DNA of 64,000 nucleotides from Promethearchaeia archaeon (GCA_029856045.1 JAHQWG010000035.1:64001-128000); one strand, 5' to 3'. Counted from the stretch's first letter, positions 15,048 through 46,951 are shown. Notes: generated by a model from the sequence alone, not told the origin. Numbers and translations are program-made.

Positions 15048-16304
15048 TTATATAGGAGGGCCTTTTTCCGGATGCCTTTTATTTAATTTTAAAATTTGAA
15101 AATCGCTCCTATTTATTATATTTGTATAGTTCTCTAAAAGATTAAGTGGATAAGTATTTATGGTAAATTTGAGTGGATCTGAATGCAAATTATGAGGAAC
15201 TATATCTCGAAAATCTTCCAGACTTACATTAAAATGATGTTCCTTTTCATTTTTTAGGTCAATAATTACAATTTCACTTTCATCTGATTCTTCAATTTCT
15301 TTCCCAACTGAGATATCTTGAACAATATCAGACTTAATTATTAGCGCATCAAACACAACACCTTCAATTACTTCTTTTATCAATTTTGATGAGTTTACTA
15401 AACTTTTGAATCCTGAAATTCTCTTTTTACCGAAAATATGATTTTTAACCTGATAATTAATTGTGCTCATTTTAATTCCAATCTTATCACAAATGCTTGA
15501 GATCGAAACGGAATTAATATTTTTAGCAGTTATTGTTAAGGTGGTCACCACACCTGCGATTACATCATCTTTTGTATTCTTGATAAATGGCCAAAATTTC
15601 AGCAGTATAATATTTGCAATTTTAATGAAATCATTGTTAAAATTAAAGGATAAACAAATTTCATTTATTTTTTTAAGGATCAATTGTTTTCTATCTCTCC
15701 TAGCGTAAGCTGGATAATAGCGAGATGCTTCCATTAAAATCTCTTTAAAATCGCTTTTACTTACGTTTAAAATGTTTATAAAATGTGGAATTTCGAAATT
15801 AATTGCTTTTACTTTTGAAACCATAAAGAGAATAACGGGTACTAACTTCTCTGGTGCCCTTCCTTTAGTTCCTTTTTTTAAATTTTTCCAAACATTCTTA
15901 AAAACGAAGATACAATCAGATTTTAACGAGATAGGAAGATGTAGAGCAGTTATAATACGATTAAATTCGGAATCAGCTATTTGAAGTACAAAATTTCTAT
16001 ATCCATTAGAAATCCTTTGCATCTTTGACATTCGCTCTAACTCATATGAGCGTGAATTTGCTCTCCTTTCTAAATTAGTCCCTAATTTTGTTGTTTTCTT
16101 AAGTTCATTAGAATAAACTTGAATTGAATCTTGATTATAGGGAGAGTTATATCGAAAGATCGGTAAATCTAATGTTAATCCACAATTTCTACAAACATAA
16201 ACACCACCAGACTCGATAATGTCTTCTGATCTACAGCCGTCACAGAAAAATCCAATCGTTTTTTCCGGTAAATCAAATATTTGAAGGTTTTTATTAAACA
16301 TCAT
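15048..16304 (-). CDS. Divergent TFB/TFIIB paralog (Zn ribbon plus two cyclin folds, C-terminal tail)
   Basis: CDGC..VYVCRNCG ribbon; EFNRIITALHLP; KGRAPEKL; terminal HTH SISSICDKIGIKMSTI. Confidence 0.75.
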   Translation of the reverse strand: MMFNKNLQIFDLPEKTIGFFCDGCRSEDIIESGGVYVCRNCGLTLDLPIFRYNSPYNQDSIQVYSNELKKTTKLGTNLERRANSRSYELERMSKMQRISNGYRNFVLQIADSEFNRIITALHLPISLKSDCIFVFKNVWKNLKKGTKGRAPEKLVPVILFMVSKVKAINFEIPHFINILNVSKSDFKEILMEASRYYPAYARRDRKQLILKKINEICLSFNFNNDFIKIANIILLKFWPFIKNTKDDVIAGVVTTLTITAKNINSVSISSICDKIGIKMSTINYQVKNHIFGKKRISGFKSLVNSSKLIKEVIEGVVFDALIIKSDIVQDISVGKEIEESDESEIVIIDLKNEKEHHFNVSLEDFRDIVPHNLHSDPLKFTINTYPLNLLENYTNIINRSDFQILKLNKRHPEKGPPI

Positions 16305-16687
16305 TTTTTATAGATCCGAAATTTAATTATCACTTGAATATGATAGGGTAGGAGTTTTAATTTTAAAGATTACGATTACCCTCTAGAAATGGCTTCTATC
16401 ATATTTTAAATGGAATAAAATTGAATAAAATTGAATTCTTAAGGAATAATCTAAGATCTAGTATTCTTCATCAAAAATCTAAGACCCTTTAAATTATTTA
16501 AAAAACGTCTCTGATAAAAATATAAAAAGGTACTGCAATTATATTTAAAAATTAATAAGTTTATGGTGTCAAAGGTTCTTAAATTATTAAAAAATTATTT
16601 ATGTATAAAAAACTAAAAATTAATTTTTATCTAAAAATATTAGCCTAAATCTATTAGGGTGCGTTATTTGATATGTTTCATAAAAAT

Positions 16688-17431
16688 TTACTCTAAATTT
16701 AATAATTTATTTAATTTTGGGATAATTTCATCAGAAAAATCATAATATTGAAGAAAAAGATCCAAAAATTCATCGTAATCATTTTCATTTAAATTAAAAT
16801 TTTGAAATATCAGGTTGCGCGAAATATCAGAAAGAGGAGTATTACTTATCCAATTTAAAAACTTACTAAAAAAATCGCCATTACCAGTTAAAATATAACC
16901 TAAATTAATCCAAACTTTATCAGGAACAAGTCCCTCATTATTAAATAATGTTTTTTCGATAATCCTCAAACTTTCTTTATTATTTTTTATTTTCTGTAAT
17001 GCTTTAAAATTGGTCCCATTACTTATTTTAAAGCTTTCAATGAATAGCTTTTGAGCTTCTATTTTATTCCCTGCAATTTCTTCAATCAATCCCAAGTAAT
17101 AATAATTTACATCAAAAAATTGATTGATTTTTATAGAAGCAATGAACATTTTTTTTGCAGTTTTATATTTCTTTTGCTTGAATTTTATTTTTCCTAAAAG
17201 ATATCTTGATTCGAAATCTTCAGGATCGTTCAGTATTGCTTTATTGAGAAAATCTTCACTTTCTACAAATTTTCTTAACTTATAAAGAACCTTTGCCATA
17301 AAACCATAAGCAGTACTATAATTAATATTAATTTCAAATATGTTTTTCAGAAGATTGTATGCTTCTTCAATATTATTCTCGCTATATTGAAATTCCGCTT
17401 CCAACATTAGGTTTTCTAATTTAGAATTCAT
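16688..17431 (-). CDS. TPR-repeat protein
   Basis: AY..MAKVL, RYLLGKI, YYYLGLI TPR patterns. Confidence 0.8.
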   Translation of the reverse strand: MNSKLENLMLEAEFQYSENNIEEAYNLLKNIFEININYSTAYGFMAKVLYKLRKFVESEDFLNKAILNDPEDFESRYLLGKIKFKQKKYKTAKKMFIASIKINQFFDVNYYYLGLIEEIAGNKIEAQKLFIESFKISNGTNFKALQKIKNNKESLRIIEKTLFNNEGLVPDKVWINLGYILTGNGDFFSKFLNWISNTPLSDISRNLIFQNFNLNENDYDEFLDLFLQYYDFSDEIIPKLNKLLNLE

Positions 17432-17574
17432 CTATAAATGAACTCAAGAATTTTTTTATCCAATATGGTTAAATAAATCTTTATTATGATTTTATAATAA
17501 TTTATCTGTATTTTTTGTTAATACTAATTTTTTTTTTATTGAATTCAAAAAATTTGATGATTTTTCTTTTTATA

Positions 17575-20106
17575 TCATGCTAATGTATTAAACCCCTCAA
17601 ATTCTTTTATTTTGCTTTTATTTTTTCTTGATTTTGTTGATATTATTATTGATTTACAGATTGTTAAGTTTAATCCTGTTTTATGTCGCAATATATGAGG
17701 ATTTTCAGAAAGAACTTTTGATGCAATATGATATCCAGCATTATACAAAATCCGACCCCTGACTCTTCCCACATTCCTCAACCTTAAAACTAAATCAAAT
17801 AATTCTTCACGAATTCCGTGTGTAATTCGGATTATTAATGTTTCACATAAATTTGCAATTTTATCATCATCTAAATAAGAAGCAATTATTCCAATAAATT
17901 TGATAATTCTGATAACGTTTTCTTTAATTGAAAATAAATCCCCGGCATAAATTTTGAATTCATCCAATATATTTTGTAAAGGTTCTTCATCTGCCCACCA
18001 AATGAGTGGTTTCATCATCTTCATATTTCTGATTCTTGATTCAGATTTTAATACAATAAAAGCACACTTAATTAAACTTTTATAATCATTAACTTCACCG
18101 TTTTCTAACATTTTTCTAATTTTTACACCGCTTGACGGATACAGATATAATTTAACTATTAATTTGCCAAAATTGGAGCAAATTAATCCATTCCTTTCCT
18201 TTAATAAAAGCCCTTTCTCAATTAAATAATCTAAGATATATTCTCCCTTCACACTTTTAGGGATTATATCATTTACGTATTTTATTATTCTTACATCGGT
18301 CTGAGAAACCAAAAATAAAAGAAAACTACTTATGTGATTACAAAAAATGAAGTTACAAGAATTTTGTCCTAGTAAATCTTCTCCAACTCTATTATTAAAA
18401 TTACAACTACATGTAATTCCGCTATCCATATCAAATCTTACATGAAAGACTCCAAAATCTGTTTTAACTATCCCTTCAATTGAATCCTTTTTTATATTTG
18501 TAATTTTTGTTTGAAAGTTAGACCTTTTAATTTTTTCTAAAACTTCTGGATTTGAATGCAATTTCAATATATTCTCTGTTGTTATTTCTTTAATTCGTAA
18601 GAATTGATCTATGGGAATTATTTTATCCTTTATGCAATTCCAATAATATGTTTTTTCAAAAAAATTTTTCAATTTATTAAATGAAATGGATTCTTGCTCA
18701 AAAACCCTTAATAATACTTGTTCTCTTAAAGTTTCAGTTGAATTTATAGCAGATTGAATAGAATTATATATAGGAACCAATCGTTTTCCATCCTCTCCTA
18801 TTTGAAAATATTGATCCTCCACCCATATTTTTTCTTCAATGTTTTTAACAAGTATTATTCCAAAACCTTTAAGATCTAAACCTGGTCTACCAGCTCTGCC
18901 CAGCATTTGGAAAATTTGATTTCTTGAAAAAGGTTCAAAATAAGTAAATCCATTGCCAAAATCTTCATAAAATTTAGAAAAATCGGTAATGTTATCAACA
19001 CTTGTTTGATATCTTTTAAAATCCTTAATAATTACCATTCGAGCTGGCGTGTTTATTCCTGCGGAGAGAGTTGTTGTGGAACAAATAACTTTTAAAATTC
19101 TCTTATTAAAATATTCTTCAATTATTTGTCGTTCTTTTGAGAGAAGTCCTGCATGATGGAAAACCACACCTCCTTTTATGCAGCTCTTTAATTCAGTAAT
19201 TCCACCCTTAATGTTTTCTAATTGCTGTGATAATTTTTTACAGATTGATAGTTCTTGAGGATCCAACTTTTTCTTTATAAAATTTTTAAGGTATAGAGCA
19301 AGCTTCTGCGCTTCCTTCCTTTTATTCACAAATATTATAATTTGGCCTTTTTTCTTTAAAATTTCATTTACATAATGTTTGATGGTTGAATCTTTATTTT
19401 GAGACACTTTGATATCATATTTTAATGGTACTGGCCTTTCATTAGAAATTATTAAGATAAATTCTTGCCCAAGTGACGATAACCAGTTGCAAAAAAATTC
19501 AGGATTTGCTACTGTGGCAGATAAAGCAATAATTTGAGGATTAATCAAAAATTCATTCAATCTAACAATTAATGATTCTAACCGCGGACCTCTGTCTCTC
19601 TCTCCAACACAATGTATTTCATCTATAATAATTGTCGTAATTTCATTAATCCATTTTTCTTCTTTATAATTTCTTAATATTGAGTCCATCTTCTCATATG
19701 TAGTTATAATTATATTAGCTTTTTGAAGTTCCTTATCGTCAATGACAATATCCCCGATTGATAATTCTATTTTTATTCCGTATTTACTGTAATTTTTCGA
19801 GAAATATTGATACTTCTCGGAAGCCAAAGCTTTAAATGGTACTAAGTAAATTGCCTTTCCATCGTTTTTGAAAATATTATTAACAATACACAGTTCACCA
19901 ATCAATGTTTTTCCGCTACCGGAGGGTGCAACAATTAAAAAAGATTTATTAAAATAGAGTCCCTTAATAATTGCTTCTTTTTGGATATCTCGTAAATTAT
20001 AAATGTTATTTTTTAATAAGATTCTAATTATTCTCTCATCGTCTACATATTGATTAAATTCTGAGATTATTTCCTCCGGTGATTTTTCAAAATTAGTCGT
20101 TGTCAT
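17575..20106 (-). CDS. Ski2-like (Hel308/Hjm-family) DNA helicase with inserted SWIM Zn finger and C-terminal HhH
   Basis: APSGSGKT, DEIH, SAT, QMLGRAGRPG; CSC-x17-CNH insert; LRNVGRVRGRILY. Confidence 0.9.
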   Translation of the reverse strand: MTTTNFEKSPEEIISEFNQYVDDERIIRILLKNNIYNLRDIQKEAIIKGLYFNKSFLIVAPSGSGKTLIGELCIVNNIFKNDGKAIYLVPFKALASEKYQYFSKNYSKYGIKIELSIGDIVIDDKELQKANIIITTYEKMDSILRNYKEEKWINEITTIIIDEIHCVGERDRGPRLESLIVRLNEFLINPQIIALSATVANPEFFCNWLSSLGQEFILIISNERPVPLKYDIKVSQNKDSTIKHYVNEILKKKGQIIIFVNKRKEAQKLALYLKNFIKKKLDPQELSICKKLSQQLENIKGGITELKSCIKGGVVFHHAGLLSKERQIIEEYFNKRILKVICSTTTLSAGINTPARMVIIKDFKRYQTSVDNITDFSKFYEDFGNGFTYFEPFSRNQIFQMLGRAGRPGLDLKGFGIILVKNIEEKIWVEDQYFQIGEDGKRLVPIYNSIQSAINSTETLREQVLLRVFEQESISFNKLKNFFEKTYYWNCIKDKIIPIDQFLRIKEITTENILKLHSNPEVLEKIKRSNFQTKITNIKKDSIEGIVKTDFGVFHVRFDMDSGITCSCNFNNRVGEDLLGQNSCNFIFCNHISSFLLFLVSQTDVRIIKYVNDIIPKSVKGEYILDYLIEKGLLLKERNGLICSNFGKLIVKLYLYPSSGVKIRKMLENGEVNDYKSLIKCAFIVLKSESRIRNMKMMKPLIWWADEEPLQNILDEFKIYAGDLFSIKENVIRIIKFIGIIASYLDDDKIANLCETLIIRITHGIREELFDLVLRLRNVGRVRGRILYNAGYHIASKVLSENPHILRHKTGLNLTICKSIIISTKSRKNKSKIKEFEGFNTLA

Positions 20107-20180: not shown

Positions 20181-20195
20181 TTTATAAAGAAAAAA
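20181..20195 (-). promoter_or_regulatory. T-run/TATA promoter motif
   Basis: TTTTTT-C-TTTATAAA upstream of the helicase. Confidence 0.45.
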
Positions 20196-20749: not shown

Positions 20750-20766
20750 TTTTTTTTATTTAAATA
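20750..20766 (+). promoter_or_regulatory. T-run/TATA promoter motif of the membrane operon
   Basis: T8-A-TTTAAATA, 27 nt before ATG 20794. Confidence 0.55.
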
Positions 20767-20793
20767 TACTTATTTGAACATCTATTGGATATT

Positions 20794-23175
20794 ATGGATA
20801 ATTACTTATATCAAAGTGATACGACATTAGATACCCCAGATAGAACAGATTATAAATATCATTATAATGAAGCAGAGAAATTGGAGAAAGAAGGAACTCT
20901 AGAAAGCCTTGAGTCCGCTATTGTTCATATTGAGATGGCAATCAATAATTTAAACATGAAAAAAGAAATATTGCCAGAGAAATCATTAGATTCAGAGTTA
21001 AAAAAATTCGCTGAACATCAATTAACGATTAAAACAAATTATCATGAGAAACGAATTAATAAATTGTTAGAAGAGGTAAAAAATGAGGAGAATTCAAAAA
21101 ACTATAAAAAATCGGTAAATATTTATAAGAAAATAAGAGATTCAATGAATTTTTTATATAAATTAGGAGATAAAGGCATAAACATTAATGAAATAAATAA
21201 AGTAAAAGAGAAAATTAGTAAATTAACTAAAAAGATATTAAATGAGAATTTATCAATCTCTTTGAACAGAAAATCAAGTAAAACTGAGCAAAAGCCATAT
21301 TCAGATGAATTTAAAGAAATTAATGCAGAATTTGAGGAAATAAATTTTGATACAAATGATCAAATTCCTTTACAGAATCATGATACTGAAGGAGAAATAA
21401 AAATACCGATTGAGGTTGAATCCAAGGTAATGGATCAAGATGAATTAGCTCAATCAGAAATGATATTATTAGAGGATAATGAAGTGGAGGAGGATAACAT
21501 AGATTTACTTGATAGACCTAACAAAATTAATATCTTAGATCAAATTAAAGTGATTTCAAATATCCCTGAAACTAAAGAATATTGCATGGAAAACGAAATT
21601 TTGGATAAAAAATCAGTCAAATTGTTATTAGCTCAGTTAAGAAAAGCATTAATTGCTAATAATTACCAAATTTTTCCTAATGATGACATTGATTTTCAAG
21701 AATTATATAATAAGATTGATTTTCTTGCAATAAAGATCTTCCATATTAATGAATTTTTAGATATATGCCATATTTTACCACTAAAACTTGCTAAACTATA
21801 CGGTTTATTACTTGTCTCAGAAAAAAAGATCGATTATAATAGCAATAATACAAATTTATCTCAGATTGAGCGTAAAAATCTAATACAGCCACTAAAAGAA
21901 GACATAAATGATGTCGTTCGTACTTTATCAAATGAACTTGGAAATGAAGGCCCGATCGCTAAAAATTTCATTTCGTATATTAATGATGATATATCCTTAG
22001 AAAAAAGCAGAATAGCAAGTAAAGGCTATTTTTATTGTAGAGGCCGAATGCAATACAATTTTATAGTTCAGCCCATTATCATTTCCCAAAATAAAATTGG
22101 ATTTTTAGAGAGGAATATACCATATGCATTCCAACAATCTTCTGATTTATATGTTGTTAATATTAACGATTTAAATGATTTATTAAGCTACTTGGAACAG
22201 AAAAAAAGTTCAATTGAAAAAATTTGTATCAAAAAGCAGCCACTTAATTTATTTATAGATAATAAAATAAAATTAAGCAATGCTTTAAGGTTAATAAGCA
22301 TCTTATTAGGAGTATTTGGGGTTTCTTACTTAATTTCATTGTTTTTAAATGATAAAATTTTTGTCAGTGTGTTTCAAGTATTACAAATTCCTTTTATAAT
22401 AGGGATAATACTTCTATTAGGTTTCTTTATATACATATATAAAAAAAACCAAGATGAGATCATTCAAAAATATAATAGACCATTCGGCTTCGACCATCCG
22501 GACTTTTCTGGACAAAATTTATCTATTGCTTTGAATCAAATTAATCCTCCTGAAAGAGAGCAATTCCTATATGAGATATATAACAAGCGTCCAATTCCTA
22601 TTGAGTTATTGCAAAAGATCCAAAATCCTCACATTTTTTCAGAATTTGTTGAATTATTTGAATCAAACATAGTAAATATCACATTAAATAATGAGAATTT
22701 AACTAGATTAAAACAGTCTTTTAAATATTTTAAACAAAAACATAATTTCTACAAAGCATATTGTATTCTTCGGGCAATTCTTGTGTTGAAATTACGAGAT
22801 TTTATAAGACATCGCTTGAATAAATCAGCCGATGATATCCATAATATCTCTTCCCTGCTAGATATAATATGCGCTGAATGTAATATCCTATTTAACAATA
22901 AGTCGGTAGAAGCGATAAAGAAAATAGAGGGAATTAGAGAACTGAAGGGACTTATAAATCAGAATTTTTTTACTCAAATTGTAAATATAGTATATGATAT
23001 TATCGAAATAATTCAGAAGAATACCAAATTGACTGAAGATCTTAAAGAATTTAATAATTTTCATGAAGAAAATGTTCAGAAATTTGAAGAGAATGCTGTA
23101 TTTGAAAAAAGCATTGGCTATACGGGAGGAGACCCTCCAGAAAATATATTTAAAGATTTCTTAAAGGATGATTAA
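20794..23175 (+). CDS. Large two-TM protein: helical N-terminus, acidic linker, degenerate PD-(D/E)xK-like domain, helical C-terminus
   Basis: LIANNYQIF...KIDFLAIK...ILPLKL; two hydrophobic helices near residues 500-550. Confidence 0.6.
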   Translation: MDNYLYQSDTTLDTPDRTDYKYHYNEAEKLEKEGTLESLESAIVHIEMAINNLNMKKEILPEKSLDSELKKFAEHQLTIKTNYHEKRINKLLEEVKNEENSKNYKKSVNIYKKIRDSMNFLYKLGDKGININEINKVKEKISKLTKKILNENLSISLNRKSSKTEQKPYSDEFKEINAEFEEINFDTNDQIPLQNHDTEGEIKIPIEVESKVMDQDELAQSEMILLEDNEVEEDNIDLLDRPNKINILDQIKVISNIPETKEYCMENEILDKKSVKLLLAQLRKALIANNYQIFPNDDIDFQELYNKIDFLAIKIFHINEFLDICHILPLKLAKLYGLLLVSEKKIDYNSNNTNLSQIERKNLIQPLKEDINDVVRTLSNELGNEGPIAKNFISYINDDISLEKSRIASKGYFYCRGRMQYNFIVQPIIISQNKIGFLERNIPYAFQQSSDLYVVNINDLNDLLSYLEQKKSSIEKICIKKQPLNLFIDNKIKLSNALRLISILLGVFGVSYLISLFLNDKIFVSVFQVLQIPFIIGIILLLGFFIYIYKKNQDEIIQKYNRPFGFDHPDFSGQNLSIALNQINPPEREQFLYEIYNKRPIPIELLQKIQNPHIFSEFVELFESNIVNITLNNENLTRLKQSFKYFKQKHNFYKAYCILRAILVLKLRDFIRHRLNKSADDIHNISSLLDIICAECNILFNNKSVEAIKKIEGIRELKGLINQNFFTQIVNIVYDIIEIIQKNTKLTEDLKEFNNFHEENVQKFEENAVFEKSIGYTGGDPPENIFKDFLKDD

Positions 23176-23917
23176 AATGATTGAGAATAGTGAGAAGATT
23201 GTAAGATGTTTTAAAATTTTCTATATCATAGGGATCGGACTGGTTATTGCATCCTTTTTCTCTGAGTGGTATTATTACGCTTATATCATCAATAGAATTA
23301 CAATGATTTGGGGATATAACATAATTGCAGGATGGAACTGTATTACTAATAATTCTATAAATTATCCTATATCAATCGAGATTGATCTTATGTTATTTTT
23401 ACTATATGTATTTATTTTTTTTTTAGCATTAATATCATTTATTTATATTTCACTTGAGCGTCCACTTTTTAGCAAGAAAAATTTTTATAATAAGGTAAAA
23501 ACTTTAAATTACATTTTTCCTGTATATCTTGGATTTAACCTTATAATATTGGCATTATTTTTATTTAATTTATTCCAGGCTAATTTCTATTTTCCATTTT
23601 TGAAGCTTTATATTGTTTCCGAAGATTCTGAAACTCTTTACTGGCTTGGTCCGGGATGTATTTTGCATATGATATCTTTTATTTTTATGTTTCCCTTTTC
23701 TGCTATAGTTTTACAGATCCCTCGAAAATTTAAATTAAAGGAGAATAAAATTGAAATTAATAAATTAATTGAAGTAAGTTCTAAAAATATAGATTTTGAG
23801 AAAATTATAATGAAAGAGAGGATAAAGAAAGATAAGACATTCAATCAATCTTCTAACGGAAAACTACAAAAAGGAAAATTTAATCTGGATAATATACGCT
23901 TGGAGAGTGAATCATAA
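23168..23917 (+). CDS. Four-TM membrane protein
   Basis: SFFSEWYY, WGYNIIAGW, LGPGCIL; overlaps the upstream stop. Confidence 0.7.
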   Translation: MIKMIENSEKIVRCFKIFYIIGIGLVIASFFSEWYYYAYIINRITMIWGYNIIAGWNCITNNSINYPISIEIDLMLFLLYVFIFFLALISFIYISLERPLFSKKNFYNKVKTLNYIFPVYLGFNLIILALFLFNLFQANFYFPFLKLYIVSEDSETLYWLGPGCILHMISFIFMFPFSAIVLQIPRKFKLKENKIEINKLIEVSSKNIDFEKIIMKERIKKDKTFNQSSNGKLQKGKFNLDNIRLESES

Positions 23918-24796
23918 GTGTCAAAATTATTAGAAGCCACTAAATTGTTATTGAATAATCAAAATTACAATGACCTGTATGAATTATATTTGGATTTGAT
24001 TTATAACGCGGTCAATGAAATTGGTGTAAAATTAAATATTACAACACTTAAATCCAACGAAAAAATTTATGATTATATGATAATAATCGATAAATTCCTC
24101 TTTAATAATATCAATATTGTATTATTTGGAGAACATATTCAGAAAGTAGTTAATTTTCACACTATATATGATAAAATTAAAAATACTTCAGAAAACCTAA
24201 AACTAGATCAGTATGATATAAAAGAATTAATTGAAGAATACTATGAACTTAAAGCCCTAGCTGTCCCTAATGTTTTTCAAGATATTGAAAGTTATAAGAC
24301 AAGTAAATATGCCAATTTTCAAACACTCAAAGCGTGTAATTTAGTTTTTGGAAAAAAAAATAAGAATTATGATAATACCAACATTGAAGATGCATTGTAT
24401 GAGATGATCTCCAATCGTATTCAAAATGATTCTGATAAAATCAGGAGAGATTATGTGAAAGGAAAACTAGCTTTTGATAAAAGTTTCAGAAAATTAGCAA
24501 CCTTAGATTCAATCCAAAAAACAATAGAGTCGTCAAAGAAAAAATTCAGCCAAATAGAGATCAGTGGAACCTTATCTGACAATTTAGAATATAAAATCTA
24601 TACATTACGGATGCCGGGATATCTTATATTATCTTTTGGAATTATTTCAGCGATATTATTAGGTTTTATATTTATGGAGATATTTTCAGTGCCAATACTG
24701 GCTGTATCATTATATCCTAGTGCTATATTTTCTGGATTAATTTGTTTTATTTGTTTTTATATCTTTATTAAATTCTTTATTAGAGGAAAAAAATGA
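23918..24796 (+). CDS. Helical protein with C-terminal TM hairpin
   Basis: Abuts both neighbours; two C-terminal hydrophobic helices. Confidence 0.7.
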   Translation: MSKLLEATKLLLNNQNYNDLYELYLDLIYNAVNEIGVKLNITTLKSNEKIYDYMIIIDKFLFNNINIVLFGEHIQKVVNFHTIYDKIKNTSENLKLDQYDIKELIEEYYELKALAVPNVFQDIESYKTSKYANFQTLKACNLVFGKKNKNYDNTNIEDALYEMISNRIQNDSDKIRRDYVKGKLAFDKSFRKLATLDSIQKTIESSKKKFSQIEISGTLSDNLEYKIYTLRMPGYLILSFGIISAILLGFIFMEIFSVPILAVSLYPSAIFSGLICFICFYIFIKFFIRGKK

Positions 24797-31229: not shown

Positions 31230-31245
31230 TTTTTTTATTTAAATA
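31230..31245 (+). promoter_or_regulatory. T-run/TATA promoter motif
   Basis: T7-A-TTTAAATA. Confidence 0.5.
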
Positions 31246-31994: not shown

Positions 31995-32122
31995 AATTAA
32001 ATAATTTAATTTATTTTATTATTTGCAAAATTATTGAGCGAAGATATATAAATAAAAAGGACATACATTAGCGTTCTTTAACAAATTTTTTTCTTTAAAT
32101 ATATTTATTTTAAACAGGAAGT

Positions 32123-32230: not shown

Positions 32231-32325
32231 AACTCCTTGAATTTTTGCAGATAGTTTTTTTTCTTTATATAAATCATTTTTATTTTATTTTATTTTTATA
32301 GATAAGAGAGATCAAATATTTTATT

Positions 32326-32700: not shown

Positions 32701-32707
32701 AGAGTGA

Positions 32708-34792: not shown

Positions 34793-35325
34793 TTGAAAAA
34801 AATGCCCAAATAAGAAATTATATTGTATTTCCTTGTAGGAAGTGCTATCAATATACTTATGCTCATGTGGATCAAAAAGGAAAAAAATGCCCCCGTTGTG
34901 GACAAAATCACAAAATTTCAGAAATCTCTGGAGAAATTGTCAATAATTTGAAAGAAGCAAATCTATTGGTAAGAAAAAAACAATATGAATTTGATAAAAA
35001 AAGTGGATTTAAAAAACTCCACTTATCATCTTTAACATCTGGTTTTACCATACCAGGATCTGATAAATCTACAATTAATTTCCAGCAATTTATAGAAAAG
35101 AATAGAAAAGATAATAAAAATTCATATAACAAATTTATATTTTGGCTGAAACAATTAAAAAGTAATTTTTCTACAATTCCAGAAAATATTTTTAATTTAT
35201 TTTTTATAAATAAGGGTTTTAAGAGTTCAGAAATTAGACAATTTACAAAATTGGCTTTAAAAAACAAAAAAATTGATCAAAATTTAAAAATTAATGATGT
35301 TAAATATTATCAAATAGTTGTTTAG
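34789..35325 (+). CDS. DUF1922-like Zn-ribbon protein with C-terminal winged-helix-like region
   Basis: CRKC...KKCPRCG; ATGA overlap with hef. Confidence 0.7.
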   Translation: MIEKNAQIRNYIVFPCRKCYQYTYAHVDQKGKKCPRCGQNHKISEISGEIVNNLKEANLLVRKKQYEFDKKSGFKKLHLSSLTSGFTIPGSDKSTINFQQFIEKNRKDNKNSYNKFIFWLKQLKSNFSTIPENIFNLFFINKGFKSSEIRQFTKLALKNKKIDQNLKINDVKYYQIVV

Positions 35326-35354: not shown

Positions 35355-35888
35355 TTAAATCATATTAGCATTTTCCATCATTACACGAGCTATAGCGACG
35401 AAGACTGATTCAACATTTTCACCAGATTTAGAAGAACATTCAGTGTATCCAATTAAATTATGAGATTTTGCCATCTCTATAGCTTCTTCTCTAATTACAG
35501 TTCTTTTTTGAGAAAGATCTGCCTTCCCTCCGACCATCAAGATTGGAATTTTGTTATAATCATCTTTTAATCCTTGACTTATTACCTTAAGCCATTGATC
35601 TAAATTTTTAAAACTGGAATATCTGGTAATATCATACATGAAAATACCTCCAGAAGCCCCAATTACATAACCAGGCAAAAGAAACCTGAATCTTGATTCT
35701 CCTGCAAAATCCCAGATTTGTAAAGAGATCTTTTTCCCGTCGTAATTAATATTTTTTAAGTGAAAATCAAGACCTATTGTCATTAATGAATCACTTTTAA
35801 AAATACCAGTAACATAACGATAAGTTAATGCAGTCTTTCCTACCCCACCCTCCCCACAAATAAAAATCTTAAAAACTGCATCTCGAAT
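35355..35888 (-). CDS. Rab-like small GTPase, ATT start
   Basis: Extension gives (M)RDAVFKIFICGEGGVGKT...MTIGLDF, WDFAGE, GGKAD, CSSK; GGTGAT SD 6 nt upstream. Confidence 0.85.
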   Translation of the reverse strand: MRDAVFKIFICGEGGVGKTALTYRYVTGIFKSDSLMTIGLDFHLKNINYDGKKISLQIWDFAGESRFRFLLPGYVIGASGGIFMYDITRYSSFKNLDQWLKVISQGLKDDYNKIPILMVGGKADLSQKRTVIREEAIEMAKSHNLIGYTECSSKSGENVESVFVAIARVMMENANMI

Positions 35889-36194: not shown

Positions 36195-37247
36195 TCAATT
36201 TCTTCTTTTAAAAAAAAAATTGCATTTTTCGTAATTATTAGTAAATTTAATTATATTATTTTTTATCCTTTCTGAATTTAATGTATGATCTTCACACATA
36301 AATTCCATAATTTTCTCTATTTGAGGATAATTCCATTTAAAATTAGAATAATTGCTAATTACTTCAGGAAATAGAAATATTTTTCTAATCTCCGCGATTT
36401 TTTTTCCATATAACCCAGAGAAATCGAATTTAGACGTACAATTTTTGACAACTGATTCAATAGAGCCAAATTTTTTAATAAACCGTAATGCTAACTTGGG
36501 ACCTATTCCCCTAATTCCTTTATTATAATCCGTTCCAATAAGCATTGCAATATCAACTAATTGAAATAGATCAATGTCCCATTTTTTTAAATTCTCTTTT
36601 AATTTAATGATAGATGGTTTTATTTTTGTATATTGCCAACTATTATTTATTTTCCTTACTCTAGATTTTGATAAATTTCTAACTTGTCCCAAGCTTCCGA
36701 AAACTAAACAATCAAAATCCTGGCTAACCGTAAAATCTACCACTTTTGTTTTAACCAAATAAGCGCATTGTGACTCCGCTGATGCAGGAGATTCCACGTA
36801 AGGAATTCCCAAATATGATAACATCTTTTTTGATTCTTGAATTGTATTAATCCACAAAAATTCTTTTCCAGTAGCGATTTGTTGAGCAAGTTGGTAATTA
36901 TGATTTTCTATTGCTTCTTTGTATTTTTGTTTAATATATTGGAAATCATGTAATTTATCTTTTGTAATCAATCGTTTATAGGGATGTACACAACCATCAA
37001 AACAAAAAATTGGGAGTATTTTTTTTGAATAATAAAAATTTATTCGATATAACAGTCCATAAAGATGAGAGATAATCCTTCTTGTTCGATCAAGCATATA
37101 TTTTGAGTTGAAATAACTGGATTTTTTATAAGAATAATTTAATAAAGACATAACAATATTAGGGCCATCTACGGCAACTATACTACCTTCCAAATCCTTT
37201 AATTCAATTTGATGAATAGTCAGAATATCTTTAATTTTTACTCCCAT
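36195..37247 (-). CDS. FEN1/XPG-family flap endonuclease paralog
   Basis: MGV, VAVDG, FDG, AESQ, SQDFD, GTDYN.GIRGIGPK. Confidence 0.9.
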   Translation of the reverse strand: MGVKIKDILTIHQIELKDLEGSIVAVDGPNIVMSLLNYSYKKSSYFNSKYMLDRTRRIISHLYGLLYRINFYYSKKILPIFCFDGCVHPYKRLITKDKLHDFQYIKQKYKEAIENHNYQLAQQIATGKEFLWINTIQESKKMLSYLGIPYVESPASAESQCAYLVKTKVVDFTVSQDFDCLVFGSLGQVRNLSKSRVRKINNSWQYTKIKPSIIKLKENLKKWDIDLFQLVDIAMLIGTDYNKGIRGIGPKLALRFIKKFGSIESVVKNCTSKFDFSGLYGKKIAEIRKIFLFPEVISNYSNFKWNYPQIEKIMEFMCEDHTLNSERIKNNIIKFTNNYEKCNFFFKRRN

Positions 37248-37965: not shown

Positions 37966-38613
37966 GTGATAATCAAATCTGAACACGATTCTAGCAAATC
38001 AGAACTTCCAGATTTTAATAAGGATGATTATATAATTCAATTTAAAATTGTATATTGGGGTCCAGGTGAATCAGGAAAAACAACAAATTTTCTAAGATTA
38101 AAGGAAAAATTCAGTTTTTTAAAAATTTCTAATGGATATTCTATAGATACTACTGATGGCAGAACACTTTGGCACGATTCCATATTTTTTACATTTAATT
38201 TGCAAATAAAAGGAAAAAAATATAATATTATTACTCAAATAACCACTTGTACCGGTCAAGAGCGTTTTTTATCAACTCGAGAGTATGTTATCGATGGTGC
38301 TGATGGAGTTATCTTTGTTGGAGATTCATGTCCTGATAAAATAGAGGAAAATAAACGGAGCTATCGAGAGCTAATAAGTTTTGTCAATAGAAATAATATA
38401 CCTATTGTTATTCAGTTAAATAAGCGAGATTTACCAGATGCAATTTCTTTAAAAAATTTTAAAAAACATTTAGGTCTTCCAAATTTAGATAAAAATTCAG
38501 ATGGAACACCAATTGTTTACGAAACCATAGCTTTAAAGGGTGAAAATGTTGCAAGAGTTTTTGAAGATTTGGTTATGAAAATATTCATCAATTTTTTTAT
38601 AAAAAATAATTGA
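37966..38613 (+). CDS. MglA-like GTPase
   Basis: KIVYWGPGESGKTTN, RTLWHD, TCTGQ, GADGVIFVGDS, QLNKRDLP. Confidence 0.9.
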   Translation: MIIKSEHDSSKSELPDFNKDDYIIQFKIVYWGPGESGKTTNFLRLKEKFSFLKISNGYSIDTTDGRTLWHDSIFFTFNLQIKGKKYNIITQITTCTGQERFLSTREYVIDGADGVIFVGDSCPDKIEENKRSYRELISFVNRNNIPIVIQLNKRDLPDAISLKNFKKHLGLPNLDKNSDGTPIVYETIALKGENVARVFEDLVMKIFINFFIKNN

Positions 38614-42161: not shown

Positions 42162-42313
42162 TTTATCTTCTTATTTATTGTTTTCTAAATAAAAAATTCC
42201 AATTTTTAGAAAGAATATATACTCCTTATTATTAAAGAAAAATGTTTTCTTTTTTTTTATTTAAATAGATCTATTTTATTTTTCACATAAATTTCCAAAA
42301 TTATTAAAAAGAG

Positions 42314-43462
42314 ATGTTTAGTTTGCAAATTGAAATACAAGAAAATACATTTTATTGTAAAAAATGTATTAATCATAAAGGATGTATCAGCGTAGAGATA
42401 GGAAGTGATGGCATTTGCAATCACTGTAAAGAACCTGATAAACATTTTGTTGTCCCAATATCACCCGAATTAAAAGAGCAAAAACGTAAAGAAATGGAAA
42501 AAATCCTAAAAAAAATAAAAGCCAAACATAGAAATCGGGAATATGACTGTGTGATTGGTTTTTCTGGAGGAAAAGATTCTACATATCTGTTGTACATTCT
42601 TGCCGTTAAATATGGACTTAATGTTCTTGCAGTTTCAGTAAATTCAGGTTATATGAATAAGGTTGCTTTAAATAATATTAAACAAACGATTAAAAACTTA
42701 GGTGTAGAGCATATTTTTATTAAACCACCAATAGAAGTATTCACTAAATTATATCGCTGGCACATTATTAACTATGATTCTAACGATTTACCTATGATGA
42801 AGAAAATCTGTGATAATTGCACTGATCTTATTGACTCGCTTGTGATTAAAGAAGCAGCACGTAGGGGAATCCCTTATGTTTTTATTGGGCTTTCGCCAGA
42901 CGAGAATGCAAGACATTTCTTTGAAATTCCTAAAGAAAAATTAAATCATTCCTTGTTACCTAAACATTGGAAATCTGATTTTTATAGTAATGAGGATAGA
43001 AAATGGTGGTGGGATCCAAATGAATTTGGATCAAAAAAGGCACCTCGATTGTTATTTCCTCTTCACATCTGGCCGTACAATGAGAAGGAAGTCATTGCAA
43101 CGGTTGAGAGAGCAGGTCTCGTAAGGAGAGGTAAAGCTGATCCTCTAAAAACTAATTGCATTCTTATCTGGGCTATAGGTATGTATGATATAATGCGATT
43201 TGGACACCATATGTATAGACTACAAATCGCAAAATTGGTACGACAGGGATTAGGAGACAGAGAGCATTGGTTGGAGATTTTTAACAGGTTAGAACCTCTC
43301 GTAGCGAATGGTGAGTTCAATACTCAACAATTAGATCGTTTTTTTAAGCAAATAGGTATGACAAGAGATGAATTGATAGAATTAGCTCGATTTAAACGGA
43401 AAAATGATCCTCGAAGGGATAATATTGAGAATGCTATGAAATTAAAAGGAATTTCCTTATAG
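42314..43462 (+). CDS. PP-loop ATPase, N-acetyl sugar amidotransferase (WbpG-like) family
   Basis: CKKC..GICNHC, YDCVIGFSGGKDS, ICDNC. Confidence 0.8.
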   Translation: MFSLQIEIQENTFYCKKCINHKGCISVEIGSDGICNHCKEPDKHFVVPISPELKEQKRKEMEKILKKIKAKHRNREYDCVIGFSGGKDSTYLLYILAVKYGLNVLAVSVNSGYMNKVALNNIKQTIKNLGVEHIFIKPPIEVFTKLYRWHIINYDSNDLPMMKKICDNCTDLIDSLVIKEAARRGIPYVFIGLSPDENARHFFEIPKEKLNHSLLPKHWKSDFYSNEDRKWWWDPNEFGSKKAPRLLFPLHIWPYNEKEVIATVERAGLVRRGKADPLKTNCILIWAIGMYDIMRFGHHMYRLQIAKLVRQGLGDREHWLEIFNRLEPLVANGEFNTQQLDRFFKQIGMTRDELIELARFKRKNDPRRDNIENAMKLKGISL

Positions 43463-43525: not shown

Positions 43526-44746
43526 TCAGTAAACAAGATCCACTATTTTTTCTGCTTCAGGAATTAATTGTAGTTTAGGATTTAATTTTCCTTTTTCTAG
43601 ATTAAATATTATATGATCTTCAAATAATTCTCCTGATGGTGTGATAACTCTTTTCCAACTTGGAATATATCCTCTAACTTTAAATCCAACATCACAAAAT
43701 ATTCTTTGATGATTAGGTTTATAGGCTGATACAAAACATTCAATATAACGAACTTTTTTTTCAGAAGCATATCGTTTAAGTTCTTTAAGTAAGACAAACA
43801 ATTCAATATCATTATTCACATTATACTTAATCTTTTCGATGTTTTCAACAGTTGGTGTATATAAGAATTTGATATTGGAATCTGTTTCTAAAATCTTAAT
43901 TATAACCTTATGATATCCAAATTTATCAATTTCTTCATAAATTTTTACACTTTTTCTATTCCAAATCTTCCTATCTAAATTAAAATCATATTGAACTATT
44001 GGTTCTAAATAGTTTGCCTCTTCAAGATTATATTGTTTTTGAATAAATGAATATATCTTATTTATCTCTGGTATTAGAACAGGATTTTTTTTCCGTAAAG
44101 AAGATAAAACTTTCTCTGAGTAAATTGTATGGAAGATATCTGATTCTATATTATTTAAGAAAATATCCTTATTAGGTAGAAAAGCTAAGGGTTTTATACC
44201 ACAGATATTTGCTAAATATTGTGATTTTATATGAGCTGTTCGACATTCTGCGTACCATATATAAATAATATTTTTGAATGTACCCCACATTCCAATCATC
44301 GAGCCAATCATTAATTTCTTAACATTTGTAATTTTCTGATATTTCTTTTTTACTAATAACCCTCTCATATAACCTTTTTTTTGTTTTCTATTTAATACGT
44401 AAGTAAAACATCCTATAGTCTTTCCTCTAGGTGTTCTGAATAATACCCAATAATAATTTTTATTCAAAATCATCTTTTGAACTTCTACCGGATCTTCCAT
44501 TTCTTTATAAGGATATGTACCGTTATAGCAATCTTTATAAATTTCAGTTATATCATAGGCATCTTCAGGTGAAGCTAAGGTCAAACAGCAATCTAACCTA
44601 TCTAAATTTTTATCAATCTCGAAATTTAATTCCATATTTTCAGTTAGATCTGGATTAACTCCAATTTTAGTAAATTTTTCAATAAATTTTTCTGTAGAAT
44701 CTGAGGTTATCAATTTGGTTTTTATTATAAAACTACTTGAAGCCAT
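43526..44746 (-). CDS. GNAT-fold acyltransferase-like protein (tandem domains)
   Basis: YNGTYPY, RGLLVKKKYQ, ECRTAH..SQ, GFKVRGYIP. Confidence 0.7.
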   Translation of the reverse strand: MASSSFIIKTKLITSDSTEKFIEKFTKIGVNPDLTENMELNFEIDKNLDRLDCCLTLASPEDAYDITEIYKDCYNGTYPYKEMEDPVEVQKMILNKNYYWVLFRTPRGKTIGCFTYVLNRKQKKGYMRGLLVKKKYQKITNVKKLMIGSMIGMWGTFKNIIYIWYAECRTAHIKSQYLANICGIKPLAFLPNKDIFLNNIESDIFHTIYSEKVLSSLRKKNPVLIPEINKIYSFIQKQYNLEEANYLEPIVQYDFNLDRKIWNRKSVKIYEEIDKFGYHKVIIKILETDSNIKFLYTPTVENIEKIKYNVNNDIELFVLLKELKRYASEKKVRYIECFVSAYKPNHQRIFCDVGFKVRGYIPSWKRVITPSGELFEDHIIFNLEKGKLNPKLQLIPEAEKIVDLVY

Positions 44747-45075
44747 AAAAAAATCAGCATTACTATCTTTTAATTCTTTTAAAATTTGATAGGAACTGTA
44801 TAAAATGAGGATATTTAAAGAAAAAATTAAATTACATTACTAAAAGAATTGTAAAAACTTTTCAAACATAAAAACAAATAAGATCTAAGAATTTGAATAC
44901 ATTTTATTATCAAAAATTATAATATTTAGACAAATACTATTGAATAATTATAGGTTTTAGATAATATGGTATTAAAATTTAATTAGTAAATTTCTATTTG
45001 ATTAAAAATTTTTATTTAAATATGTCTGTTTTACTCTCCTTTAAAATAAATTTAGAAATAATTTTGAAACCATAA

Positions 45076-46239
45076 GTGAGAAAAATGGTATTAGAATATG
45101 AATTAGTAAAAAAAATCTATCAAACCCATGACTTAATAGAAATTGAATATGCTTTAGAATCTATCCTTGAAATTTCCGATAAACGATTGAAATCTAGAAT
45201 TGTAAGTGAAATTTTAAAATATCTAATTGAGAAATTTTTTGATAATATCTATAAAATAGCTGTTTATATCTGCCGTGATAATTCTGAAATTGTTGGATTT
45301 GTTATTGCTCAAATAGATCCTAGTTATCGAAGTTATGGTAAGTTGTGTGCTACTTTTGGATGGTTACGGGCTGATTCCTTAGAAACATGCAAAAAACTTA
45401 TGAATGCTTGTGAAAATTTTGCTAGAAAACATGGATTTCGAAAAATTAGAGGACCAATTAATTATCCAAAAGGTTTAGGTGGTATTGGAGTTCAAGTAGA
45501 TGGATTTAATGAGAAGTTATTTTATGGTGTTGCTTTCAATCCTATTAATATAGCAGATTATTTAGACAAGTTGGGATTTAAACGAGATGCCGAATATATT
45601 TGTGTTCATGTGACAGAAAAAACTTGGAAGAAGGGAAAAAAAATAGATAATAATGTTTGTTTAAGATTTCTTCCTTTAAAAGATATAATTGCAAAAGAAG
45701 AAGAGATTATGGAATTGACATCTAACGCGTTTAATTTCATTTTGCCTGATCATAGTGGAAGTGGTAGGTTTGATGAAGTTATGAGACAATATGCTGCAGT
45801 ACCAAAAACTCATTATAAATTGCCACCAAATTTTAACCCAAGAAACTATTCCGATATTCCAGAGTTTATTGAAGCATGGGAATCTTGTGACCTAGAAAAT
45901 GTAGTTACATGGGCTCCGATAGCATTTAATAGTTATACAGGAGAGATTGTTGGAGCCATCTTTTCACTTCCTGATCTTTATCAACTATGGCTTAGAGAAC
46001 CAATTACACGGGTTAATGTTGATACTGTTTTTGTTAAACCCGGTTATACAGGTAAAGGAATATTCTCTGCATTAAATAACATCGGACAGATCACTACCGG
46101 ATTCAACGGGATAAAATATATTGAAGGAACACATATCTGGAATAAGAATGAAGAAGCGGTACAGTCAATCTTTCCTCATACTAAACCTTTAAGAAAGCAT
46201 ATTATTTTTCAAAAAAGATTGCGTGCTCATAAAAAATAA
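45076..46239 (+). CDS. YghO-like tandem GNAT protein
   Basis: ATFGW, ARKHGFRKIRGPIN, VKPGYTGKGI, IEGTHIWNKN. Confidence 0.75.
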   Translation: MRKMVLEYELVKKIYQTHDLIEIEYALESILEISDKRLKSRIVSEILKYLIEKFFDNIYKIAVYICRDNSEIVGFVIAQIDPSYRSYGKLCATFGWLRADSLETCKKLMNACENFARKHGFRKIRGPINYPKGLGGIGVQVDGFNEKLFYGVAFNPINIADYLDKLGFKRDAEYICVHVTEKTWKKGKKIDNNVCLRFLPLKDIIAKEEEIMELTSNAFNFILPDHSGSGRFDEVMRQYAAVPKTHYKLPPNFNPRNYSDIPEFIEAWESCDLENVVTWAPIAFNSYTGEIVGAIFSLPDLYQLWLREPITRVNVDTVFVKPGYTGKGIFSALNNIGQITTGFNGIKYIEGTHIWNKNEEAVQSIFPHTKPLRKHIIFQKRLRAHKK

Positions 46240-46252
46240 AATCAATATTCAT

Positions 46253-46951
46253 TTATTTTTTAATTATTTTATCTATTAAGTCCTTTATAACATCAGATGA
46301 TTTTCTCAGACTTATAAATCCAACTAAATGAAGACTTTTAAAAATTTTATTTTTTACTTGATAATTTACTGTGCTCATTTTAATTCCTATTTTATTACAT
46401 ACGTGTACAAAAGGGATGGAATTTATTCCCAATGCAATCATTGTTAAAATAAAAATTACTCCCACTATTACATCATCTTTTGTATTTTTTATATAAGGCC
46501 AAAATTTTTTAAAAATCTCTTGAGATTTATTAGTAAAACCTTTGTCAAATCTAAAAATTTCTTTTATTTTGTTTATTTTTTTGATAATAACGGTCTTTCT
46601 ATCTCTTTTAAAATAAGTCGGATAAAAAATCGCTGCTTGCTTTAAAATTTCAGTAAATTCTTTTTTATTTGAATTGATCTTTTCTATAAAATCAGCAATT
46701 CTAATATCAAATCCTTTTGCTTTAAAAACCATATAAATTATTACTGGGGCTAACTTTTTTGGTGACCTTGATTTAGTTCCTTTTCTCATCTGTTTCCATA
46801 TCTGTAAAAAAATCTGAAAACATTCTTCATATAAGTTTGGATATTTTGCCAAATCCAAAATAATTATCAATTTGTTTAAAATTAATTCAAAACTATCAAT
46901 TACAGTTTTCTCATAGTAAGAATATTGAATAAATTGTTCAGATTTGCTCAT
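46253..46951 (-). CDS. TFB-like cyclin-fold protein lacking the Zn ribbon (paralog of 15048-16304)
   Basis: Shared blocks KGTK.R.P.KL.PVI, KFWP.IKNTKDDVI.GV, KIGIKMST.NYQVKN.IF. Confidence 0.75.
   Translation of the reverse strand: MSKSEQFIQYSYYEKTVIDSFELILNKLIIILDLAKYPNLYEECFQIFLQIWKQMRKGTKSRSPKKLAPVIIYMVFKAKGFDIRIADFIEKINSNKKEFTEILKQAAIFYPTYFKRDRKTVIIKKINKIKEIFRFDKGFTNKSQEIFKKFWPYIKNTKDDVIVGVIFILTMIALGINSIPFVHVCNKIGIKMSTVNYQVKNKIFKSLHLVGFISLRKSSDVIKDLIDKIIKK

Follow-up and report, generated by a model that had tools for sequence, protein, structure and literature searches.

In archaea, alternative TFBs correspond to sigma factors, and few clear factor-promoter pairs are known. In TFB/TFIIB, the Zn ribbon recruits RNA polymerase. 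The present locus therefore raises a question: what does a TFB-like protein do when its gene encodes the core without the ribbon, in the same stretch of DNA as a full-length paralog? We analyzed a window of 64,000 nucleotides from a Promethearchaeia archaeon. All coordinates are positions in this whole window, counted from its first letter, and the features are collected in Table 1. An earlier note, made from the sequence of the window, had proposed that the two genes encode an activator and its feedback inhibitor.

Two TFB-like Open Reading Frames

Both of the ORFs named in the earlier note exist, and they are called P0001 (long copy) and P0002 (short copy) here. BLASTP aligned residues 127-317 of P0001 with residues 40-230 of P0002 without gaps (191 residues, 49% identity, 68% positives, E = 4e-57). 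The two ORFs had been described as sharing long near-identical blocks. Because the overall identity is 49%, this description holds for three blocks only, GTKxR[AS]P.KL.PVI, FWP.IKNTKDDVI.GV and KIGIKMST[IV]NYQVKN, and not for the match as a whole. Both helix strings quoted for the final HTH are present, and the recognition helices are identical at 12 of the 13 positions.

Neither protein matched PF00382 or PF08271 at the Pfam gathering threshold. With 21.5 bits, NCBIfam PRK00423 remained below its cut-off of 384, and a single-sequence search of the PDB returned ribbon look-alikes only. Since these searches gave nothing usable, profiles were needed for the family call. The A1 profile matched cyclin 1 of human TFIIB (E = 1.6e-6) and P. 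woesei TFBc (E = 1e-3), and hhalign against the canonical TFBs of the same genome gave a probability of 97.4% (E = 1.2e-11) over 186 columns, including the recognition helix. The AF2 cores (pLDDT about 90) matched TFIIB, TFB, Brf1 and Brf2 in Foldseek, the top matches being TFIIB and TFB. With 1d3u_B, TMt was 0.72 (rmsd 3.7) for P0001 and 0.67 for P0002; identity to solved structures is about 14-18%. The cyclin/TFIIB fold, on which the earlier proposal depended, was thus detected in both copies by profile, profile-profile and structure comparison. P0001 and P0002 are two paralogs in a branch of the TFB/TFIIB family that is lineage-specific and has diverged strongly.

Table 1. Positions of the two TFB-like genes, their parts and the T-run/TATA sites in the window
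Feature	Position	Strand	Remarks
Long TFB-like paralog P0001, 418 aa	15048..16304	-	Zn ribbon, reader/linker-like segment, two cyclin repeats, rewired HTH, C-terminal extension ending KGPP
P0001 Zn ribbon, residues 21-44	16173..16244	-	CxxC...CxxC; profile match to 1pft
P0001 cyclin-repeat core, about residues 100-318	15351..16007	-	pLDDT about 88-96; 1d3u_B match
P0001 recognition helix GIKMSTINYQVKN, residues 276-288	15441..15479	-	Aligned to canonical GVTEVTVRNRYKE
P0001 C-terminal extension, residues 319-418	15051..15350	-	Low-confidence beta elements; terminal KGPP conserved; missing in P0002
Short core-only paralog P0002, 232 aa	46253..46951	-	Two cyclin repeats and HTH; without ribbon, reader, linker and C-terminal extension
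P0002 recognition helix GIKMSTVNYQVKN, residues 189-201	46349..46387	-	Alignment to P0001
P0002 T-run/TATA promoter TTTTTTATTTAAATA	46973..46987	-	21-22 nt to ATG; conserved in orthologs of G148 and P0084
T-run/TATA, upstream of Hel308-like helicase (17575-20106)	20181..20195	-	
T-run/TATA, upstream of four-gene membrane operon (20785-28650)	20750..20766	+	
T-run/TATA, upstream of 130-aa RNR_Alpha-domain protein (31302-31694)	31230..31245	+	
T-run/TATA, upstream of small ORF	32086..32101	+	
T-run/TATA, upstream of 32326-35325 (124-aa ORF, Hef-like helicase, DUF1922 protein)	32255..32271	+	
T-run/TATA, upstream of PP-loop ATPase-like gene (42314-43462)	42250..42267	+	
T-run/TATA, upstream of 406-aa unknown gene (43526-44746)	44812..44826	-	
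Relaxed T-run/TATA, upstream of GNAT-like gene (45076-46239)	45009..45022	+	
T-run/TATA, upstream of 394-aa ORF (46999-48183)	48188..48201	-	
T-run/TATA, upstream of small membrane protein (48285-48617)	48214..48229	+	Back to back with the 48188..48201 site
T-run/TATA variant, upstream of RadA-like gene (49017-50204)	48965..48980	+	Conserved in G148, G202, L052
T-run/TATA, upstream of 108-aa Zn-ribbon protein and 352-aa partner (50333-51707)	51732..51749	-	Conserved in G202, G169, G188
T-run/TATA variant, upstream of 250-aa ORF (53360-54112)	54137..54153	-	

Modules of the Long Copy

The four ribbon cysteines of P0001 (C21, C24, C38 and C41) do not vary among 41 homologs. The family profile matched the TFIIB ribbon 1pft (E = 8e-3), and PF08271 is present in some homologs. 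Between ribbon and core, residues 48-100 are a conserved segment with the motifs PYN.D, LG.TQIG, ER and L.KLNKLQSI; the reader part was modelled with pLDDT below 50, and the hhalign match begins at residue 86, in the linker. The recognition helix is altered, as the earlier note had recognized. Compared with the canonical VTEVT[IV]RNRYKE, the helix reads IKMSTI[NQ]xQVK, and both Arg residues are replaced by Asn/Gln in P0001 and P0002. The C-terminal extension was modelled at low confidence (pLDDT 27-55).

The T-run Promoter Class

Upstream of P0002, where a T-run promoter had been noted before, a TATA box is directly preceded by a T-run (TTTTTTATTTAAATA); the transcript is probably leaderless. 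In this promoter class, 6-9 consecutive T residues occupy the BRE position, abutting the TATA box on its upstream side at a fixed spacing, whereas upstream regions genome-wide are A-rich on the sense strand. Within the adjoining 34 kb, such promoters stand in front of about 15 transcription units, among them Hel308-, Hef- and RadA-like genes, the membrane operon and genes for small membrane proteins. The motif is rare in the genome and concentrated at 20-54 kb of the window: of the 21 strict sites in the 3.34-Mb genome, 9 fall within 31 kb (P = 1.3e-13), and of the 60 relaxed promoter-like sites, 13 fall within 38 kb (P = 1.7e-13). No T-run/TATA site was detected in the 384-bp region upstream of P0001.

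In G148, G169 and G202, the long TFB-like gene lies amid clusters of the motif. In G188, the orthologous genes are dispersed yet have kept the motif. In G202, G188 and G169, an ortholog of the 250-aa ORF adjoins the long TFB-like gene, and in the first two of these genomes it is on the opposite strand, head to head with that gene. Across genera, conservation of the motif goes along with that of the gene set and the factor. The T-run promoter is a statistically real, evolutionarily conserved promoter class that is clustered next to the P0001 and P0002 genes. The sister family f3 failed as a motif-negative control, because weak family matches and RadA-like orthologs with a looser T-rich element were found there.

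Co-localisation and co-conservation of factor and motif suggest that P0001 reads the T-run. Alternatively, the T-run may be a structural element of the A-tract kind, a composite of terminator and promoter, or a binding site for another regulator; the TFB-like proteins would then act at other promoters. Several sites, including that of the short copy, follow co-directional genes, where oligo-T could terminate transcription. The genome-wide motif count is barely above the reversed control (21 vs 15), and most sites in G188 are far from the TFB-like gene. However, we rejected termination as the only role, since no co-directional gene lies upstream of at least five sites of the cluster, which are in divergent intergenic regions. 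Furthermore, the T-run abuts the TATA box at the fixed spacing, and, besides the co-conservation described above, factor and element are both present in f3 only in weaker, looser forms. We consider the alternative, in which the T-run is not read by the TFB-like proteins, improbable.

Domain Loss, Selection and Distribution of the Short Copy

Because P0002 is behind the same rare T-run promoter as the recombination/membrane gene cluster, it may be a built-in brake. The Zn ribbon is absent, as previously claimed: P0002 has no CxxC pair, and upstream of its ATG the open frame continues for just 3 codons (235-aa frame). P0002 keeps all core residues that are invariant in the family, and the basic loops GTKxRSP and NTKDD are retained. 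Six-frame searches of the genome revealed no separately encoded ribbon/reader module of the P0001/P0002 family. A 161-aa split-gene ribbon candidate on contig C44 was rejected, as the gene is merely cut by the contig end.

The P0001/P0002 family is present in 97 of the 134 genomes of one Lokiarchaeia-type GTDB family, and a core-only ORF occurs in only about 8-10 of these 97 species genomes. Further core-only genes in other genera are located behind T-run promoters. In the TFB phylogeny, which had been suggested as a check, 13 ribbon-less sequences formed a clade (SH-aLRT 97) that is sister to the P0001-type long forms, although this monophyly may be partly an artefact because the branches are long. 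The clade was obtained from a rooted tree with more members. The first tree, without an outgroup, did not resolve the origin of the ribbon-less forms, and the stem branch of the short clade was long in it (0.77). Two apparent ribbon-less genes in G241 (C53 and C84) were set aside as contig-end truncations, and the sequence of G271:C65 has an N run.

P0002 might be a decaying, functionless remnant of a duplication, since the core-only copy is missing in most species of the family and the copy in the same-genus genome G145 is riddled with stop codons. However, the orthologs of P0002 have intact ORFs of equal length at 99, 86 and 68% identity, and the promoter is also kept. In addition, dN/dS is about 0.28 and the AF2 model has a pLDDT of 91. 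Decay is thus very improbable, and the substitution pattern indicates that P0002 is under purifying selection. Nevertheless, given the small number of core-only ORFs and the broken copy in G145, any brake would be a dispensable accessory and not an obligatory part of the regulon.

A Candidate Regulatory Circuit

P0001 appears to keep the modules to nucleate a pre-initiation complex (ribbon, reader/linker-like segment, cyclin repeats and HTH), and would be the dedicated initiation factor for a private T-run promoter class. P0002 would offer the same recognition helix without the RNA-polymerase-recruiting parts. Being itself under a T-run promoter, it would build up after the regulon had been switched on. 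P0002, which may bind TBP-DNA, would then compete with P0001 for T-run promoters occupied by TBP, and the result would be damping or a delayed negative feedback. Its effect would presumably be to shut the programme off, as the earlier note had proposed. We assign a probability of about 0.4 to this reading, with P0001 as the dedicated factor and P0002 as the competitor. In Sulfolobus, TFB2 with an engineered N-terminal truncation is reported to engage promoters without recruiting RNAP and to inhibit competitively, in a dominant-negative manner, in vivo (bioRxiv 10.64898/2026.09.06.749720).

P0002 could instead be positive or neutral at promoters. It might bookmark them or pre-assemble TBP and then be exchanged for P0001, or it might be one part of a split TFB whose ribbon/reader is supplied in trans. 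The conserved core and recognition helix agree with this possibility, as do the many other ribbon-bearing TFB-like proteins in the genome; moreover, Sulfolobus TFB3, a half-TFB, activates in trans (PMC6101594, PMC7289017). However, the genome searches found no separate ribbon/reader gene of the family, no Zn-ribbon gene consistently adjoins the short copy in G148 or L052, and the engineered Sulfolobus equivalent inhibits. A positive or neutral role is therefore rather unlikely.

P0002 could also work off DNA, by titrating one of the two TBPs encoded in the genome or another partner of P0001, or as a cyclin-like protein scaffold. Cyclin folds generally serve in protein binding, and the long stem branch of the short clade would be compatible with such a change. 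Without DNA binding, however, the near-identity of the recognition helices and the retained basic loops are hard to explain, and we doubt that P0002 acts in this manner.

If P0002 is a competitor, the locus might represent a Loki-type Asgard circuit that resembles sigma/anti-sigma control and is made of TFIIB paralogs only, in which an alternative TFB that reads a T-tract in the BRE position would turn on clustered recombination and membrane genes, and a natural core-only competitor, made from the same class of promoter, would then displace it and limit the response to a pulse. This wider proposal is more tentative. At one locus, a sharply delimited promoter class is found together with a candidate for its reader and a possible built-in competitor. 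The system is small, and it bears on the rewiring of BRE specificity and on the possible regulatory use of a half-factor.

Comparison with Known Systems

The Asgard lineage is the closest to eukaryotes, in which the TFIIB family later gave rise to TFIIB, Brf, Rrn7 and cyclins. As in archaeal TFB and TFIIB (PDB 1AIS, 1D3U; human TFIIB), P0001 has the ribbon, the reader/linker-like segment, the cyclin repeats and the HTH, and the core fold is common to both copies. Differences include the additional 100-aa C-terminal extension of P0001 and the loss of everything N-terminal of the core in P0002. A TFIIB-like body with a C-terminal extension is also the organization of Brf1, Brf2 and Rrn7. However, the structural matches to Brf1 and Brf2 cover the cyclin core only, and no similarity of the extension, modelled at low confidence, to the Brf1 homology blocks was detected.

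Haloarchaeal TfbA-G and Sulfolobus TFB2 are paralogous, sigma-like initiation factors with partly distinct promoter sets, which P0001 would resemble. The promoter class described here differs sharply, with a T-run in place of the A-rich BRE; in addition, the candidate regulon is physically clustered and the factor is beyond Pfam detection. TFB3 of Sulfolobales is a truncated paralog tied to genes of the DNA-damage and DNA-exchange type (PMC6101594, PMC6101591), and a truncated TFB paralog is found here with a similar set of helicase, recombinase and membrane genes. The description of P0002 as the mirror image of TFB3 is apt, since P0002 is the core only, whereas TFB3 has the ribbon and N-terminal part without the DNA/TBP-binding core. 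TFB3 activates a DNA-damage regulon in trans.

TFS4 of Saccharolobus solfataricus, a TFIIS-type paralog turned inhibitor, acts on RNAP globally (PMC5715097). It is a precedent for an inhibitor that evolved from a paralog of a basal factor, but the inhibition proposed for P0002 would occur at promoters and in one regulon only. No characterised natural core-only TFB was found in the literature searched, and natural shut-off in Sulfolobus occurs by proteolysis and the repressor aCcr1. Both P0002 and the engineered TFB2 truncation of Sulfolobus acidocaldarius (bioRxiv 10.64898/2026.09.06.749720) are core-only TFBs, the latter belonging to an alternative-TFB regulon and the former to a candidate one. 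The truncation is, however, a laboratory construct, whereas P0002 is a natural, conserved gene under the promoter class of the candidate regulon itself.

Architecture of the Two Paralogs

The genome contains only two members of this TFB-like family, the ribbon-bearing long copy (P0001) and the core-only short copy (P0002). An earlier note, made from the DNA alone, had described the two ORFs as sharing near-identical blocks. BLASTP aligned residues 40-230 of P0002 with residues 127-317 of P0001 without gaps (E 4e-57). Three nearly identical blocks were found, including the final helix (KIGIKMSTINYQVKN versus KIGIKMSTVNYQVKN), but the identity over the whole match was only 49%. Thus, the description holds for the blocks and not for the entire aligned region.

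The long copy is composed of a C4 ribbon with invariant cysteines, a conserved B-reader/linker-like segment between ribbon and core (PYN.D, LG.TQIG, L.KLNKLQSI), two cyclin repeats followed by an HTH, and a 100-aa extension with a conserved KGPP at its end. The KGPP motif is preceded by an acidic linker and a small beta-rich segment. The short copy spans the first to the last core helix with nothing beyond, and the C-terminal KGPP tail of the long forms is missing. Its ORF cannot be extended (235 codons from stop to stop), and 47 nt separate it from the end of its upstream gene. The Zn ribbon is absent, as had been noticed, and the short copy is a natural "TFBc".

Other arrangements were observed among the homologs. 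Unrelated N-terminal regions replace the ribbon before the cyclin core in P0181 (772 aa), P0228 (1107 aa), P0177, P0222, P0204 and the homolog at L020 644-1642, and one such core fusion (G229:C233) carries HTH-like repeats. P0087 (477 aa) starts within the linker, without a ribbon, has the first core part in two tandem copies, and ends with the KGPP tail.

Positions of the features discussed (in the window unless a genome or contig is given)
Feature	Location	Strand	Remark
Long copy, P0001	15048-16304	minus	418 aa
C-terminal tail of P0001, ending in KGPP	15051-15350	minus	
Stand-alone RNR_Alpha-domain (ribonucleotide-reductase alpha) protein	31302-31694	plus	130 aa
Small Ras/Arf-family GTPase gene	35355-35783	minus	
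FEN1-like gene	36195-37247		
Small Ras/Arf-family GTPase gene	37966-38613	plus	
Short copy, P0002	46253-46951	minus	232 aa
394-aa ORF and small membrane-protein genes	46999-48980		
RadA-like gene	49017-50204	plus	Rad51 domain 79-315, HHH_5 341-392
Divergent ribbon-bearing TFB-like ORF, same genome	G000:C32:134738-135850	minus	371 aa
Divergent ribbon-bearing TFB-like ORF, same genome	G000:C27:155268-156395	plus	376 aa
Short-copy homolog, same genus	G145:C204:1493-2130		about 11 stop codons
Core with unrelated N-terminal region	L020 644-1642		

Family Identity and Fold

Pfam detected neither a TFIIB repeat nor a ribbon in either protein, and the sole NCBIfam match was PRK00423 (21.5 bits). Eighty homologs, mostly of 400-445 aa, were obtained from MAGs of Asgard archaea that bear the label Promethearchaeota, Lokiarchaeota or Hermodarchaeota. 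PF08271 is present in a few of them, and some carry the JGI label "TFIIIB Brf1/TFIIB". A profile built from 41 of the eighty matched human TFIIB cyclin 1 (E 1.6e-6), P. woesei TFBc (E 1e-3) and the TFIIB ribbon 1pft (E 8e-3), and recovered the canonical TFBs of the window's genome at 5e-16 to 8e-6. Furthermore, hhalign against the four canonical TFBs of the genome gave a match that covers 186 columns, beginning in the linker and reaching the recognition helix (97.4% probability, E 1.2e-11). In the AF2 models, the pLDDT was about 88-96 for the long-copy core and 91 on average for the short copy. The top structural matches in Foldseek were TFIIB, TFB, Brf1 and Brf2, with a TMt to 1d3u_B of 0.72 for the long copy and 0.67 for the short copy. 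The cyclin/TFIIB fold, on which the earlier note's assignment depended, is present in both models. Fold and profile place the two proteins in the TFB/TFIIB superfamily.

In TFB/TFIIB-BRE complexes, the BRE is read by the recognition helix. Profile-profile alignment sets the helix IKMSTI[NQ]xQVK against the canonical VTEVTVRNRYKE, with both arginines substituted, so that the suspected alteration of this helix is borne out. The long copy is an apparently complete but rewired TFB-like factor.

The search for family members covered 400 Asgard species genomes; of the 134 that belong to the same GTDB family as the window, 97 have one. Weak matches (1e-18 to 1e-31) appeared in 6 of 14 genomes of the sister family, and none was found among the 400 beyond these two families. 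Within the own family, no member was detected in some genomes of 97-99% completeness, with 21 candidates scored. The genome of the window also encodes two TBPs, four canonical TFBs and a further TFB that is truncated at a contig end. Two divergent ribbon-bearing TFB-like ORFs stand outside the P0001 family, and the genome has about nine TFB-like genes, canonical ones included.

The T-run/TATA Promoter Class

The short copy lies behind a T-run promoter, as the earlier note had stated: CTCTTTTTTATTTAAATA is followed by 21 nt before the ATG. Sense-strand A-richness is general in upstream regions of this genome (AAAAAATA, 336 sense versus 159 antisense). Across 3.34 Mb there are 21 sites of the strict motif, TTTTTTVTTTAWATA, nine of them at 20.7-51.7 kb of the window (binomial P 1.3e-13). 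With a looser pattern and an ORF 5-95 nt downstream, 60 sites were found in the genome, 13 of them in the 38 kb of the cluster (P 1.7e-13). The sites lie upstream of the Hel308-like helicase, a four-gene membrane operon, the Hef-like helicase operon, PP-loop ATPase-like, 406-aa and GNAT-like genes, the RNR_Alpha-domain protein, the short TFB, the 394-aa ORF, small membrane proteins, the RadA-like gene, a Zn-ribbon protein with its partner, and a 250-aa ORF. Since at least five cluster sites are in divergent intergenic regions, the T-run as a mere upstream terminator is ruled out. Two small GTPase genes and an adjoining FEN1-like gene are also located inside the cluster.

This private promoter class adjoins the long copy. 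No T-run site was found in the long copy's own upstream region, and the strict motif was not found upstream of it, in its orientation, in four other genomes searched. Motif clusters also surround the long gene in G148, of the same genus, and in G169 and G202, of other genera. G188, a single-contig genome, has the genes spread over three loci, with the motif kept at the orthologs. Across several genera, the element is retained at the orthologs of the membrane operon, the Hel308-like, 406-aa and RadA-like genes, the Zn-ribbon pair and the 250-aa ORF. At the sister-family RadA-like ortholog, the T-rich element is looser, with a spacer of 2-4 nt. This is consistent with a joint change of factor and element, without being proof of it; a rival explanation is that something other than the TFB-like proteins reads the T-run.

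In the RadA-like protein, the HhH domain is C-terminal. The genome encodes three RadA-like proteins, with the C17 and C15 copies about 42% identical, and both types occur in the sister family too. In G148 and on contig L052, the short TFB and the RadA-like gene are divergently oriented, and the segment that lies between them in the window, with the 394-aa ORF and the small membrane-protein genes, has no counterpart. This segment is a strain-specific insertion, and it carries T-run promoters of its own, placed back to back.

The Short Copy as a Gene

Orthologs of the short copy at 99, 86 and 68% identity are unchanged in length, and comparison with the G148 ortholog gave a dN/dS of about 0.28. 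G148 and the 68% ortholog both keep the T-run/TATA element 21-22 nt ahead of the ATG, and the 68% ortholog is also divergent from the RadA-like gene. In other genera, core-only genes lie behind T-run promoters too, for example in G252 (TTTTTTGTTTAAATA, 22 nt before the ATG). This core-only paralog is conserved under the same promoter class. With a cut-off of E < 1e-30, a search of 1.8 billion representatives gave 162 clusters of the family; several complete proteins that consist of the core only (228-266 aa) are among them.

A TFB phylogeny had been proposed in the earlier note as a check. In the tree rooted on canonical TFBs, 13 ribbon-less sequences fall into one clade with an SH-aLRT of 97, its sister group being the P0001-type long forms (98), and at least two further ribbon losses occur elsewhere; the branches are long and these groupings are to be read with caution.

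Core-only ORFs were found in only about 8-10 of the 97 family-positive species, and the homolog in G145, which is interrupted by stop codons, is apparently a pseudogene or an assembly problem. Therefore, the short copy is an accessory of the system and not one of its fixed components. A functionless remnant is an unlikely rival explanation; the constant length and the dN/dS of the orthologs weigh against it.

Proposed Mechanism and Comparison with Known Systems

We tentatively propose that the long copy reads the T-run and that the short copy would occupy TBP-bound T-run promoters. Having no ribbon, reader or linker, it would block recruitment there, and the outcome would be negative feedback; the probability of this whole scheme is put at 0.4. 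An N-terminal truncation of S. acidocaldarius TFB2 was reported to engage promoters without recruiting RNAP and to inhibit the TFB2 regulon competitively, with a dominant-negative effect (bioRxiv 10.64898/2026.09.06.749720). This is a direct experimental precedent for the proposed mechanism. As alternatives, the short copy may have a positive or bookmarking role at these promoters, or a role off the DNA.

In a full-text literature search, neither an Asgard TFB family of the P0001/P0002 kind nor a natural core-only TFB was found described. Compared with canonical TFB/TFIIB, both proteins score below the Pfam thresholds and have no canonical recognition helix; the short copy is also without a ribbon. 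In its proposed function, the pair resembles alternative-TFB regulons. TFS4 offers an analogy, as a basal-factor paralog turned inhibitor (PMC5715097). In relation to Sulfolobus TFB3, the core-only short copy is the reciprocal truncation (PMC6101594), and the mirror image drawn in the earlier note is an apt one.
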